Of a stretch of DNA of 64,000 nucleotides, positions 561 through 64,000 are shown in pieces. The stretch lies in assembly GCA_963829055.1 (NCBI GenBank), contig CAWHHI010000006.1:64001-128000 (forward strand), written 5' to 3'. Under the pieces are notes generated by a model. That model searched no databases. It saw only the letters and a program-made list of their open reading frames with translations, and was not told the origin of the DNA. The stretch's first letter is position 1. Each line of letters begins with the position of its first letter. Made by a program: the position numbers and the translations under genes. Source of the DNA: an uncultured Gemmatimonadaceae bacterium (GTDB lineage Bacteria > Gemmatimonadota > Gemmatimonadetes > Gemmatimonadales > Gemmatimonadaceae).

Positions 561-3218
561 CCATGACGACGTCCTGGTTGACGCGTATGCTGCGCGCCCT
601 CGGGCTCCGATCGGAGGAGACCTCGCCCGAGAGCGAGATGGATGAGGAGATGGCATTCCACCTCGGAGATGGCCACGCGTCGCAACGTCGAGCGTGGCCT
701 GACGCCTGACGAGGCCCGACGCCGCGCACTCGCGACGTTCGGCGGAGTCGCACAGACGCGAGAGTCCGCGCACGACGGAATGCCCGGCCGCCGACTCGAC
801 GAGCTGCGGCAGAACCTCAGCTACGCGAGTCGGACGCTCCGCCGAAACCCGGGATTCGCGACGTCAGTCGTGCTGACCCTCGCGCTCGGCATCGGCGCCA
901 ACACGGCGATCTTCAGCGTCGTGAATGGCGTTCTGCTTCGTCCGCTGCCCGTGCCGGAAGCCGACAAGGTCGCGTTCGTCGGTTGGAAATATGCCAACGG
1001 CGGATTCACCGCGTTGACGGGATTCCAGCTGGAGTTTCTCCGGAGCTACACGCAGACGTTCGCCGGCCTAACGACGTATCGGACGTCGAGTCGTGAGCTC
1101 GGAGCCGCACCGAACACTCGAACGGTGCACGGCCTCCGCGTCTCGCCGGATTTCTTTTCGGTGGTAGGAACACCACCAGTTCTCGGCCGCGGCTTCGTTC
1201 CCGAGGAGGAAGCACCCGGCGGCCCAGCCGCCGTGGTGTTGAGCGATGCGCTCTGGCGGAGCGTATTCGCCGCCGACCGATCGGTGATCGGACGAGCCGT
1301 TCAACTGGACAGTACCACGTACACTGTCGTTGGCGTCGCGCCACCGGCGCTTCGGGTGCCCGATGCGCCGGAGAACACCGAGTTCTTCGTGCCGCTGCAG
1401 CTCCGTGTGGATCCGACCGACATCGGCGAGAACTATCTCGCGCTTGCTCGCATCAAGAAGGATCGCACGCGCGAGCTCGCGTTGGCCGAGCTGCGCACCG
1501 TTGCCGATGCGTTCCGCCGTGAACATCCGAATCTCGCCAAGGCGCCCGCTGGCTACACCATGCTCGCGTATCAGGATGTCTACGTCGGCGGTCCGCTGAA
1601 GCGCACGCTCCTCATCCTGCTCGGCGCCGTGACCTTCGTGTTGCTCATCTCGGCGGCGAACGCGGCGAACCTCCTGCTCGCGCGTGCAGCCGCACGGGAA
1701 CGTGAGATCGTGGTGCGGACAGCGCTTGGTGCGAAGCGCGGCCGCATCGTGCGGCAGCTGCTCAGCGAAGGCATCGTGCTCTCCGCGATCTCGGGCGTGC
1801 TTGGACTCGTGCTCGGGATGTGGGGCGTGCGAGCCATGCTGGCACTCGCGCCGAAGCAACTGCCCCGCGCGGAGGAGATCGGGCTCGACTTCCGGGTACT
1901 GGCGTTCACGTTCGGCATCGTCGTGCTCACCGGGCTCGGGTTCGGCATAGCAGCAGCGATTCCGACCGGGCGCCTGAATCTCGCCTCCGTGTTAGGCGAG
2001 CGCGCGCGAGGCTCGGCAGCGAGGCAACGCAGTCGTGACGTACTCGTCATGAGCGAGACCGCGTTCGCGATCATACTGCTGGCCGGAGCCGGGCTTCTCC
2101 TCACGAGCTTCGCGAAGCTTCGCAGCGTCGATCCTGGCTTCAAGGCGGAGAACGTGACGGCGGTCCGATTCGGCCGCATGCCGGACGGCTACTCGACCAT
2201 GGACGCGGTCTGGCTCTTCGAGCGACAGCTGATCGACCGCATGTCCCATGTACCAGGGGTGCAGCGCGTCGCGGGGCTTCCCAACTTTCCCCTCGAGCAC
2301 GGGTGGAACATGCCGGTCGCGCTGGCGGGAGTGGCCGAGAGCGGTGATGGCGGCGTCGAGTATCGCTGGGTCACGCCGGAGTACTTCGAGACGCTACAGA
2401 TTCCGCTGCTTCGGGGGCGACAGTTCACCGCGAGCGACGACCGCCACGCGCCGCGCGTTGCGATCGTGAATGCGGCGATGGCCAAGCGATTCTTCCCCGA
2501 TGGGGATGCGTTAGGCGAGCAGATCGAGGTCGGTCGCTACAAGGACCACTGGATTGCCAAGGAATTCGAGGGAACGGTCGAGATCGTGGGGATCGCCGGC
2601 GACGTGCGCGAGATCGGTCTCGATCGGCCACCGAGGCGAACAGTGTTCGTACCGATGGCGCAGGCGCAGGACCGGATGGTCTCGTCGCCGCTCCTCGTGA
2701 TCCGGTCGATGCCCGGCACGGCTCTGCAATCCGCAGTCAATGACGCGGTCCGCAGCATCGATCCGAGAATCACCGCTCCGCAACTCCAGTCGCTCCCGAG
2801 CATCGTGGGCGCGTCGCTCGCGGAGCAGCGCTTTCAGACGACGTTGCTGACGCTGTTCGCCGGAACGGCGCTCGCGCTCACAGCGATTGGAATCTTCGGC
2901 GTGGTGTCGTACGGTGTGCAGCAGCGTGTGCGCGAGATCGGTGTGCGCGTCGCGCTCGGGGCGTCGTCCGGCAACGTGCTGCGCCTGATCGTTGGTCGTT
3001 CGTTGGCATTCGCCTCCGCCGGAGCGATCATCGGCGTCCTCGGGGCGCTCGGCCTCACCCGTTTTCTCTCGGGGCTTCTGTACGGCGTAACCGCGGCCGA
3101 CCCGATGACGTTCTCGCTGGCTGTCGCGACACTGCTGATCGTTGCACTGCTCGCGTCGTACCTCCCCGCGCGTCGAGCCGCGCGCACCGACCCAGTGGTG
3201 GCGCTGCGACTGGACTGA
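557..3218 (+). CDS. Duplicated MacB/FtsX-type ABC permease (ADOP family), frameshift near 665
   Basis: EMDEEMAFHL, LALGIGANTAIFSVVNGVLLRPLP, REIGVRVALGA, ARTDPVVALR; ATGA overlap with padR. Confidence 0.9.
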
Positions 3219-3596
3219 AGCTGGAGTCATTCCGAGCTCGTCGTCACCGATGAGGAGTGGGAGTCATCCTAAGAGCCAATCGCGGAATGAGGTAGCTCCG
3301 CGCTACGCTGGCCATGCCGATCGGCCACACCGACTGATCAGCATCGAGGCCAATCCGTTGCGGAGGAGGAGGTTCCATGCCTGCCACCCGTGCACCGAAA
3401 GCGTGCGATGGGTGGTGCTGCTCAAGCCCGGAACGGTCTCAACGTCCGCGTTAGGCGGGGCGTGCCCGCGTTCGCGATCACACTGGAGGCGGGAGCCGGG
3501 GCCCCTCCTCATGATAAGGCGACATACCGCCTAGCTTGCTTCCTGCATATGAGTCGACTTTCTTCCGCGTCCGACGTAAGAGCACCTGAGGGAGCT

Positions 3597-4400
3597 ATGG
3601 AAATGCAGTTGCAGCTCAAGGAGCGAATTCGGTCATATGTACCGCGCCCGGTCATCGAAGCGCGGCGAGCCGTCATAAAAGGGGTACGGCGTGCACGGGC
3701 CGAGTGGCCGTTGATGTCGCTCCAGCTTGGCAGGCTCGGGACTCTGGACTATAAGAGCCGCGGAGTACTCGTACGGCGACTCCTGGATGCGCACGAGCAT
3801 GTGCAGTGTGCGCACACGCACGAAGAGATGGTTCGCATCCTGAAAGAGATATTCGCCATTCCGGCCGATCGGCCCGGCTGTATTGTCGAGGCGGGATGCT
3901 TCAAAGGCGGTAGTACCGCCAAGCTCAGCATTGCCGCAGCCGAAGTCGGGCGCCGGCTCGTCGTATTCGACTCGTTCGAAGGTATTCCGGACAACGACGA
4001 ACCGCACGACACGACGATCTTCGGCGACACGGCTCGGTTCGCGAAGGGGTCGTACGCCGGCAGGCTGTCGGAGGTCTCTGATAACGTGGAGCGCTGGGGC
4101 GAGCTGTCGGTGTGCGAGATGGTGCCCGGCTGGTTCAGCGACACGATGCCCAAGTTTCGCGACCCCATCGCGATTGGCTTCATCGACGTCGACCTCGCGT
4201 CGTCCACGCGGACGTGTCTGGAGCAACTCTATCCCCGACTCATTCCTGGCGGCGTGCTGTTCTCGCATGACGGGCACCTGCCGTTATGCATCGACGTTCT
4301 TCGCGATCAGGCGATGTGGAAGGCGATCGGTGGTCCGACGCCAGTCATGACCGGACTCGGCACCGACAAGCTCGTCGCGATTCAGAAGCCACGTCAGTAG
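3597..4400 (+). CDS. TylF/MycF-like (macrocin) O-methyltransferase
   Basis: IVEAGCFKGGS, VFDSFEGIP, PGWFSDT, FIDVDL, LIPGGVLFSHD. Confidence 0.85.
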   Translation: MEMQLQLKERIRSYVPRPVIEARRAVIKGVRRARAEWPLMSLQLGRLGTLDYKSRGVLVRRLLDAHEHVQCAHTHEEMVRILKEIFAIPADRPGCIVEAGCFKGGSTAKLSIAAAEVGRRLVVFDSFEGIPDNDEPHDTTIFGDTARFAKGSYAGRLSEVSDNVERWGELSVCEMVPGWFSDTMPKFRDPIAIGFIDVDLASSTRTCLEQLYPRLIPGGVLFSHDGHLPLCIDVLRDQAMWKAIGGPTPVMTGLGTDKLVAIQKPRQ

Positions 4401-4431
4401 TAGGCAACCGCGCCGTCTGTTCACTGGACGG

Positions 4432-63082: not shown

Positions 63083-63139
63083 GTATTGTCGGAACCCGAC
63101 AACACGATGCGGGGCGTATTGTCGAAAGTCAACAATACG
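63083..63139 (-). promoter_or_regulatory. Two palindromes upstream of padR, probable operator
   Basis: GTATTGTCGGAACCCGACAACAC and CGTATTGTCGAAAGTCAACAATACG. Confidence 0.55.
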
Positions 63140-63160
63140 CTCGCTAGAGGCCGCCGGCCG

Positions 63161-63958
63161 TTAGCCGCCTAACAGTGCCACCCACGTCCCGTCCACGAGG
63201 GCGTGAGTGATGGCGGACGCCGTAATCCGTTGCGTGCGCCAGTAGACCCAGCCATACGCAAGGCCCGCGATGGCAGCGAGCAGCATGTATCGTGGGTCGG
63301 GGAAGTGGGCCAGGCCGAACACGATCGACGCGATTACCCAGCCCGCCCGTGGGCCGAGCCACCGAGCGAGGAGGTTCTGCAGCAGCCCGCGGAAGAGGAA
63401 CTCTTCGGGCACGCCGGTCACGAGATAGATGATGAATGGCGCGCCGGCGACGTGAGTCGCGTCGAGCGCTGGACGCCACGCGATGAAGCCGGTCGCGAAG
63501 CCGATCGGCAGCGCGACGACGGCGTAAGCGAGAAACGCGGTCACCGCCAGGCTGGCGTCGCGGGCGGTCAGGCGGTACGTGTAGCCTATGCCCGGGAGCG
63601 GCCGCGCGACGAGAAAGAGGTACATCGCGTCCACGAGCCCGACGAGCTTTCGCATGTCGACGCCGTTAGGCGCCGGTAGCGGCAGTGCCGGGAGGAGTCG
63701 AAACTCGATGGGCAGCCAGAGCGCCAGAATGACGGCGAGCTCACGCACGGGGACGCGCCGCTCCTCGCCCTGGGTGTCCCGAGCCCCGGCCGCGGCGAGC
63801 AGGAGCGGCGGGAGAAACAGGTATGCCGCATAGATCGGGACGCGCAGTCCGATAGGGAGCCCCGACACGCCGGCATACGCGGTGGTGGCCAGGAAGAGCG
63901 TCGCGGGGCCGGCGAATAGACGTCCGAGCGGGGGCAAACCCTCCACCGCCGACCGCAA
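63161..63958 (-). CDS. CPBP/Abi family intramembrane glutamic endopeptidase (start may lie beyond the window)
   Basis: EEFLFRGLLQ, FGLAH, AITHA. Confidence 0.85.
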   Translation of the reverse strand: MRSAVEGLPPLGRLFAGPATLFLATTAYAGVSGLPIGLRVPIYAAYLFLPPLLLAAAGARDTQGEERRVPVRELAVILALWLPIEFRLLPALPLPAPNGVDMRKLVGLVDAMYLFLVARPLPGIGYTYRLTARDASLAVTAFLAYAVVALPIGFATGFIAWRPALDATHVAGAPFIIYLVTGVPEEFLFRGLLQNLLARWLGPRAGWVIASIVFGLAHFPDPRYMLLAAIAGLAYGWVYWRTQRITASAITHALVDGTWVALLGG

Positions 63959-64000
63959 TGACTGCCTAACGCCGTCGATCGACAGTGCAATGTACGCGCC

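Follow-up and report, generated by a model that had tools for sequence, protein, structure and literature searches.

Results

Copies of the word in the window and in the source genome

The stretch analysed here (the window; 64,000 nucleotides, positions 64,001 to 128,000 of contig CAWHHI010000006.1 of an uncultured Gemmatimonadaceae bacterium) carries a short word, GTTAGG on one strand and CCTAAC on the other, in 70 dispersed solo copies that lie in genes and spacers on both strands between 1067 and 63970. The exact count, 34 copies on the + strand and 36 on the - strand, agrees with the tally by eye of about 70 in the initial annotation, which had also described the word as mostly extended to GTTAGGC and often to CGTTAGGC; this holds for 60 and 50 of the copies, respectively. 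An order-2 Markov model expects 4.1 copies of GTTAGG, 1.6 of GTTAGGC and 0.8 of CGTTAGGC in the window, in line with the earlier rough estimate of fewer than 10 of the 7-mer. On the + strand the hexamers start at 1991, 2510, 3450, 9858, 10179, 11916, 13642, 14611, 15249, 15592, 15805, 16183, 17441, 21547, 25231, 27680, 27944, 29137, 30099, 31004, 35161, 36644, 37020, 38706, 40119, 41154, 44324, 49229, 51505, 54204, 56012, 61788, 62564 and 63665. On the - strand they start at 1067, 5626, 5977, 6300, 7457, 9922, 13206, 26793, 29128, 29818, 32720, 33073, 34540, 39418, 41367, 42453, 42935, 44532, 44961, 45900, 46581, 47500, 47961, 49615, 51271, 52079, 53650, 55121, 57262, 58355, 58812, 59181, 60186, 61533, 63168 and 63965. 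The sites first singled out at 1991, 2510, 9858, 14611 and 35161 are exact; for the two given as 44531 and 57261, it is the 7-mer GCCTAAC that begins there.

The source genome (G000; 7.78 Mb in 20 contigs, 86% complete) contains 7,103 copies of GTTAGG against 512 expected and 5,004 copies of CGTTAGGC against 102 expected (order-2), and GTTAGG, GTTAGGC and CGTTAGGC rank first among its 6-, 7- and 8-mers. The density of the hexamer is 0.75-1.2 per kb on all contigs and about 0.9 per kb in coding and non-coding DNA alike. G precedes 96% of all TTAGG, and the consensus is CGTTAGGC (reverse GCCTAACG), with weak preferences one base further out and no longer context. An assembly or base-calling artefact is ruled out by the presence of the word in six congeners and in a finished plasmid record, and insertion of a repeat or mobile element is ruled out by the unrelated flanks of the copies and their gain by substitution. 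The word is real, and it is selected or driven. Neither CGTTAGGC nor GCCTAACG was found described in the literature searched, outside which lie supplements, subscription journals and REBASE that could hold a methylome or k-mer table with the word, and combined searches with the word and taxon names returned nothing relevant.

Coding cost of the word

Genes of the source genome were called with a simple dicodon model (6,899 genes, 73% coding); many of them are frameshifted, for which long-read error is the cause we infer. The called genes hold 4,515 copies of the word, whereas five shuffles of synonymous codons leave only 535-590, so that an eightfold enrichment survives and an artefact of codon or amino-acid usage is rejected. 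The word occurs in the reading frames G-TTA-GG (1,874), CCT-AAC (1,298), C-CTA-AC (777) and GTT-AGG (543), and a single mutational hot spot is likewise rejected, since the different frames need different and multiple changes. As first noted, the word forces the otherwise rare TTA, CTA and CCT codons: 1,878 of the 2,721 TTA codons and 1,311 of the 3,338 Pro-Asn pairs of the called genes lie inside it. Amino-acid usage is shifted too, with the tripeptides of the word raised relative to the open reading frames of ten word-poor genomes (Pro-Asn 1.39 vs 1.01, ALG 1.40 vs 1.11), a small comparison set of 111,264 residues. Stop codons are taken over as well: among 4,680 called genes, 219 of the 224 CC-TAA stops and 153 of the 171 GT-TAG stops fall in the word, which terminates 372 genes in all; in the window, the copy at 5977..5982 (-) supplies the TAG stop of a Ser/Thr kinase gene (5978-6913). 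A promoter element was also considered and rejected, as the word shows no peak before starts and is enriched at stops and in the 40 bp beyond.

Conservation among congeners

Conservation was tested in one 20-kb region against five congeners at about 76% identity. In the alignments 61 of 95 word sites are kept, compared with 4,198 of 16,703 control hexamers (25%), and A or T at the third codon position is kept at 60 of 84 places in the word but at only 1,598 of 4,567 in the controls. Gains and losses of the word appear as substitutions, often several at one site, and all six genomes of the genus carry 2,501-5,112 octamers. Seven copies of the window are kept in 6/6 of the genomes compared, namely one in a DEAD-box helicase gene (25231..25236, +; gene 24737-26578), one in the gene of cytochrome bd oxidase subunit I (42453..42458, -; gene 42107-43432) and the coding copies at 30099..30104, 31004..31009, 35161..35166, 36644..36649 and 38706..38711, all on the + strand.

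Strand, spacing and variants

Strand use of the word in the source genome is close to random (chi2/df 1.10 over 143 bins of 50 kb), with no switch at a dif-like site at 560.8 kb of contig C16, a point at which GC skew, gene orientation and GGGNAGGG all change over. In G255, a word-rich genome of the order Chthoniobacterales (Verrucomicrobiota), the two strands carry 586 and 603 copies along 1.6 Mb, of which 15 of 16 bins have a positive GC skew. The dif-like site itself lies at about 560790-560815 at the skew switch, and word density is somewhat lower at 400-500 kb.

These results bear on the reading of the word as a polar signal like Chi, which was named at first, or the FtsK-orienting polar sequences (KOPS), recognized by a resection nuclease or a DNA translocase. 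Such a signal would likewise be an asymmetric octamer of high density, and phages are reported to be enriched in Chi, as some are in this word. The word, however, has no replication polarity, its copies repel each other regardless of orientation (see below), and no resection enzyme is common to the carriers tested: in a search with PF12705 in five genomes, RecBCD was found both in G255 and in the word-poor G067, while the complete carrier G178 (7.5 Mb) gave no clear RecB, AddA or AddB nuclease and a weak match in a mobile-looking locus only. We regard this reading as largely refuted and very improbable.

Copies of the word keep apart at short range. In the source genome the ratio of observed to expected word pairs rises from 0.30 (10-50 bp) through 0.39 and 0.51 to 0.56 (151-200 bp), then to 0.80 (201-300 bp), 0.94 and finally 1.01 (501-1000 bp). 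Near neighbours are depleted in each of the four relative orientations, the dip is absent from four control words, and there is no 10.5-bp phasing of the copies. Inverted pairs no more than 50 bp apart reach just 0.06-0.31 of chance; the sole tight inverted pair of the window, CCTAAC-aac-GTTAGG at 29128..29142, belongs to this class depleted throughout the genome.

Relative to a shuffle in which the codons of the word are frozen, two single-base variants are in excess, CGTTATGC 4.3-fold and CGTCAGGC 2.8-fold. CGTTATGC avoids full copies (0.39, 0.55, 0.62, 0.74) and is the only enriched variant to share this repulsion, which is absent for CGTCAGGC and CGTTCGGC. Because copies repel below about 300 bp in every orientation, and CGTTATGC does so as well, one reader probably sees CGTTA(G/T)GC on duplex DNA. 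CGTTATGC is probably a weaker site of the same reader, and CGTCAGGC may be a codon-friendly remnant.

The copy in a tRNA-like sequence and its neighbourhood

The initial annotation placed one copy in the apical loop of an RNA at 44477. In the predicted fold of 44477-44604 (z -1.9) the word does form the loop G[CCUAA]C, with GCCTAACG at 44531..44538 (+) as the loop of a 5-bp hairpin, and the homologous position is kept in both congeners that align there. Recognition of the word as a hairpin loop is nevertheless rejected, as its flanks lack covariation in every class of site across the genome; because the flanks do not covary, the loop is one tolerated position and not the mode of reading.

The sequence at 44477-44604 is one of three tRNA-like sequences with enlarged arms (the others at 44807-44921 and 45512-45604), which lie between tRNA-Arg (44393-44469) and, downstream of them, a Ro60/TROVE gene (45868-47529). 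By a weak match to YrlA (E 0.002, below the gathering score) they are probably Y RNAs. A family of palindromes resembling repetitive extragenic palindromic (REP) elements (GTCATTCCGAGC...CTCGGAATGAC) is abundant in the window, at 27956-28092, 44608-44770 and 45176-45300; the window holds 43 copies of TCATTCC/GGAATGA, and the family has many matches in all five congeners. A transposase resembling the REP-associated tyrosine transposases was recognized by eye at 34699-35352 of contig C20.

Word-free gaps and foreign-looking DNA

Three gaps without the word, first seen by eye and read as possible marks of recently acquired DNA, are real and measure 2,401, 4,106 and 3,684 bp. The largest (17447..21546) holds ordinary genes. 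Among 69 gaps, however, 5.9, 1.25 and 1.7 of such sizes are expected, and with a GC content of 0.645-0.669 and ordinary genes these gaps do not mark acquired DNA. On the scale of the genome the same idea fares better: the 5% of genes with the lowest GC at third codon positions carry 0.49 words per kb compared with 1.0 per kb in the 80-95% class, and segments of foreign appearance have no copies at all. Word density is similar in genes that have a cross-phylum homologue and in genes that lack one. The word deserts of the source genome, at 6.9-55 kb and beyond about 596 kb (596-623 kb) of contig C6 and in the 1-44 kb segment of contig C11 (desert 7.4-44 kb), lie near contig ends, and their housekeeping genes belong by eye to other bacteria; judged from the genes, these deserts are likely chimeric assembly joins. 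In practice the word may serve to flag such segments.

Distribution in bacteria, a plasmid and phages

Within the family, 44 of 130 genomes carry 173-6,360 octamers, one carries 110 and 85 carry at most 91. Of the 44, three are weak carriers, with counts close to that of the reversed-word control or lower, and G162 was counted as a word-poor row. A sample of the phylum gave word-rich genomes in 5 of 31 members of the same family, in 3 of 71 of a sister family (all of one genus) and in 0 of 48 elsewhere. There is also a cultured carrier, Gemmatirosa kalamazoonensis KBS708, whose 1.1-Mb plasmid 1 (NZ_CP007129) holds 778 copies against 20 of the controls. At the start of this record word positions recur at a fixed offset of about 53 kb (for example 9589, 9707 and 22094 as 62649, 62767 and 75154), a pattern that points to a sizeable duplication or overlap.

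In a single-gene tree, built from a core gene with 32 rows chosen mostly one per genus, the word trait needs 10 changes, at least 5 of them forced by strong branches; sister pairs differ, and the trait clusters no more than shuffled labels do (252/500). Forty kilobases from each of 10 word-poor relatives showed no comparable dialect word, and the word-poor G213 has 9 copies of GTTATG in mixed flanks. When 185,579 species were scanned for three copies lying close together, a search that sees only dense carriers, 50 stretches were returned, of which 24 belong to Gemmatimonadota, 23 to Verrucomicrobiota (16 of these labelled as Chthoniobacterales or Spartobacteria) and 3 to Bacteroidota. The Bacteroidota matches were set aside, two being local repeats and one having three sites only. 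In the Chthoniobacterales 7 of 90 genomes are word-rich, and the word of G255 has the same core, a preferred 5' T and depletion below 100 bp.

Phages carry the word as well, although they were picked by it, from 80 of 122 and 45 two-copy matches. Four of the five records followed up hold 18-43 copies (controls 0-3) and the fifth holds 11 (control 4). They include a provirus, a phage with an integrase-like gene and a repressor, a 17-kb fragment with 31 copies, and a 44-kb phage, 98% complete and with no tyrosine integrase found, in which 29 copies (control 3) give the density of the source genome. Scans of viral contigs for triple words gave no clear further dense phage, and no relative of phage L168 was found. 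The word may predict phage hosts. One end of a 118-kb viral contig (IMGVR_UViG_3300023212_000464, L103; 133-4020) carries 14 same-strand copies of CGTTAGGCGATGG(G/A), 110-840 bp apart, which resemble an array of promoters or repeats and have no relation to the dispersed word.

These distributions would fit a word that anchors an intracellular sequence-specific DNA-binding protein, such as an organiser of the nucleoid, a protective factor or one that tells self from non-self, with an effect that spreads or wraps over 200-300 bp. A mobile or easily lost gene for this protein would explain the patchy gains and losses (at least 5 and at best estimate 10 changes on the tree, with differing sister pairs) and the sharing between phyla with an identical core in the Chthoniobacterales. 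Any DNA replicating in the cell would gain copies, as the 1.1-Mb plasmid and the phages of host-like density may have done, the near-complete one without a tyrosine integrase found among them; the orientation-blind repulsion has the scale that such an effect requires. Selection, on the other hand, would need to act on individual sites out of 7,000, the copies have no 10.5-bp phasing, and none of the candidate proteins described below tracks the word. We consider an intracellular anchor possible, though less likely than not, and place it as a close second to an uptake sequence because of the phage, plasmid and cross-phylum evidence.

Coincidence with integron attC sites

In word-poor relatives the few clusters of CGTTAGGC are ends of integron attC sites beside intI, in arrays selected for carrying the word. 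The word is identical in every letter to one common attC end of the phylum and fits GTTRRRY. In the source genome its first-position variants, C and then T, correspond to the two attC ends, and CGTTATGC likewise occurs as an attC core. Both the source genome and G255 have IntI. In the former, a divergent IntI (40% to a family IntI) lies at 208008-208985 (-) of contig C20 with a long, partly decayed cassette array at about 173-208 kb, and further attC-like hairpins occur on contigs C9 and C10. By a rough estimate CGTTAG would be shared with attC in two phyla by chance with a probability of <1%, so that chance seems an unlikely explanation.

The word copies are not themselves attC sites. This candidate was rejected on their solo occurrence in genes and their origin by substitution; inverted pairs at the spacing of attC (50-140 bp) reach 0.22-0.69 of chance in the source genome, and loose attC hairpin matches number 86 there against 7,103 copies of the word. 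A causal link could still exist if the reader, perhaps an uptake receptor in search of gene cassettes, were specific for the attC core (CGTTAG...); convergence of two phyla on this word, spread across their chromosomes by drive, would follow. The clusters beside intI, the matching variants and the IntI of both genomes are in its favour, as is a precedent in Vibrio, where transformation feeds cassettes to chromosomal integrons (PMC12614218). Several results point the other way. When 20 loci were selected by intI instead, the four attC-like hairpins found with a GTTA core carried CGTTAGAC, CGTTAGCT, CGTTAGCC, CGTTATGT, CGTTATGC and the like, and none of them had a CGTTAGGC core; GTTAGAC and GTTAGCC are not enriched in the source genome; and the presence of IntI does not track the word (25/40 vs 31/40). 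We therefore hold a causal link of this kind to be quite unlikely.

A related proposal, also unlikely in our view but somewhat less so, is that the two phyla share one reader aimed at the attC core, either an uptake receptor fishing for cassettes and the DNA of kin or a mobile intracellular reader, whose repeated gain would rewrite chromosomes, plasmids and phages with CGTTA(G/T)GC. If true, this would be the first code of the DNA-uptake type common to more than one phylum, and it would tie natural transformation directly to the capture of cassettes.

Candidate readers

No candidate reader tested tracks the word. The tests were presence tests on incomplete genomes, which are blind to a universal protein with changed specificity. 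Type IB topoisomerase is found in 16/24 vs 14/26 Gemmatimonadales and 11/12 vs 9/18 Chthoniobacterales (word-rich vs word-poor), TIGR03916 in 9/24 vs 5/26 and 2/12 vs 2/18, and SWIB-domain proteins in 50/50 Gemmatimonadales and 24/30 Chthoniobacterales. A small SWIB-domain protein with an Ala/Lys-rich tail, encoded at 56171-56539 of contig C11, is a possible nucleoid protein. A screen of the source genome against 2.0 of the 3.9 Mb of G255, with multi-copy families filtered out, gave 758 protein matches (581 + 177), and most of these, read by eye, included no convincing reader.

Methylation was weighed as well. In a ratchet of the type proposed for the cyanobacterial HIP1 (highly iterated palindrome 1), an adenine methyltransferase would mark GCCTAAC, and methyl-directed repair would fix new sites and protect old ones. 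The writer could be an Eco57I/MmeI-like adenine methyltransferase (about 1,070 aa, single-copy) found in 79 of 80 Gemmatimonadales, and the switch some patchy repair partner. Sites of the MmeI family have a penultimate A, a shape that GCCTAAC shares. Under the ratchet near neighbours should be depleted, and phage DNA should be affected too. HIP1 likewise spreads by substitution and is polyphyletic (PMC13756078). Against this, word-poor genomes have the enzyme just as often, and the rows long enough to cover its putative recognition region are similar there; no other methyltransferase turned up in nearly all of the Gemmatimonadales sampled. Of 14 matches to Eco57I-type loci in Chthoniobacterales, the five compared share just 23-31% identity with parts of the enzyme. 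Family searches in five genomes each found no PF01555 or PF00145 enzyme in G000 or in the complete G178 and no PF02086 match in 4 of 5 carriers, and the word is not palindromic. We judge such a ratchet improbable. At 73551-79061 of contig C8 the enzyme is followed by an SNF2-like helicase, amid housekeeping genes, and it may be an order-wide orphan methyltransferase.

The source genome has ComEC, ComEA-type helix-hairpin-helix proteins and a pilE/pilV/W/X and pilM cluster. Of its seven pilins one, a standalone pilin, was profiled: it matched strongly in 8 of 27 carriers but in none of 26 others, and gave no strong match in the complete carrier G178 or in six Chthoniobacterales.

Discussion

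Our results support the view that CGTTA(G/T)GC is a genome-wide recognition word, selected or driven, which behaves most like an uptake sequence. The initial annotation had offered a HIP1-, Chi- or uptake-like element or a nucleoid or methylation signal. Its uptake-like part is the best supported. Chi is not supported, given the absence of polarity and of a resection enzyme common to the carriers tested, and methylation of the HIP1 type is weakly supported at best, the word being non-palindromic and no methyltransferase tracking it. The reading that we tentatively favour, while holding it to be somewhat short of probable, is that the word is a tag of self-DNA similar to uptake sequences. Orientation-blind, saturating and graded recognition of a duplex word at a coding cost is what uptake sequences show. 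The data show that the word is abundant and conserved, spreads by substitution, lacks polarity, is spaced out and has a graded variant, and that competence genes are present; we infer a protein that reads the word, reading at the time of uptake, and drive as the underlying force. The reader would recognize double-stranded DNA by its sequence and regardless of orientation, in the simplest case as a surface receptor of the type IV pilus and competence machinery, and would prefer fragments that bear the word. Homologous recombination of the chosen fragments would then favour point mutations that create the word and purge those that break it, a molecular drive that would act even at a cost in codons or amino acids. 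One copy per short fragment would suffice, so that near neighbours would be depleted. In Haemophilus influenzae uptake does not rise when a second uptake signal sequence (USS) lies within 100 bp, and USS density is lower in accessory DNA, at 0.58 vs 1.08 per kb (PMC7811141). This saturation would fit the short-range depletion of the word if the recombining fragments are short.

A number of observations weigh against an uptake tag. No receptor was identified among the candidates tested, and competence genes are as common in word-poor genomes (ComEC in 5/5; PF12836 in 50/51 Gemmatimonadales, Tex paralogues included). The word forms no inverted pairs in terminators and has no flanking AT-rich segments in the source genome, where 3% of the gaps are 100 bp or shorter, compared with 23% of USS in H. 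influenzae (PMC7811141). Conserved genes are not richer in the word, 10-12% of the synonymous opportunities being filled in every class. The word-dense phages, picked by the word and including the 44-kb one without a tyrosine integrase found, would count here too if lytic, because uptake drive should not act on a lytic phage. We know of no DNA uptake sequence (DUS) or USS that is shared as the same 8-mer by two phyla.

Genome-wide self tags are established in two proteobacterial families and, less clearly, as the cyanobacterial HIP1, and their origin is debated. One word that recurs in word-rich and word-poor sister lineages of two abundant soil groups provides natural contrasts for separating drive from selection. 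The cultured carrier G. kalamazoonensis makes uptake, methylome and pull-down tests possible, and the word could help to transform these little-studied bacteria.

Compared with known systems, the word resembles Chi and KOPS in being an asymmetric, over-represented octamer, but it differs in having no replication polarity and no shared cognate enzyme. With HIP1 (GCGATCGC) it has more in common: both are very abundant octamers that spread by substitution, are conserved in coding and non-coding DNA, are polyphyletic and spaced non-randomly, and have a proposed link to transformation (for HIP1, PMC13756078). The word is, however, not a palindrome, has no cognate methyltransferase found and lies outside cyanobacteria. 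In attC (GTTRRRY / RYYYAAC) the core letters are the same, and TAA stops, often found in the attC of cassettes, are frequent in the word as well. The copies of the word, in contrast, are solo, lie in genes and arise by substitution, other common cores are not enriched and there is no co-occurrence with IntI, so that the word matches one common core and not attC as a class.

DUS and USS are the closest comparison. The receptor of the Neisseriaceae DUS is ComP, and that of the Pasteurellaceae USS is predicted to be ComN/PpdA (PMC12616744). The word differs from both in its sequence, in an 8-bp core without AT-rich flanks, in the depletion of near neighbours, and in its occurrence in two phyla, patchily within a family and in phages. 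We do not file it as a member of this class, because terminator pairs are absent and a receptor was not identified. It nevertheless shares with DUS and USS a density of about 1 per kb, its place in genes and spacers, an origin by point mutation, conservation beyond coding need, an imprint on the proteome, the presence of competence genes and perhaps a lower density in atypical DNA. In both the source genome and G255 it also shows the use of both strands without replichore bias that PMC1939737 gives as a feature of uptake sequences.

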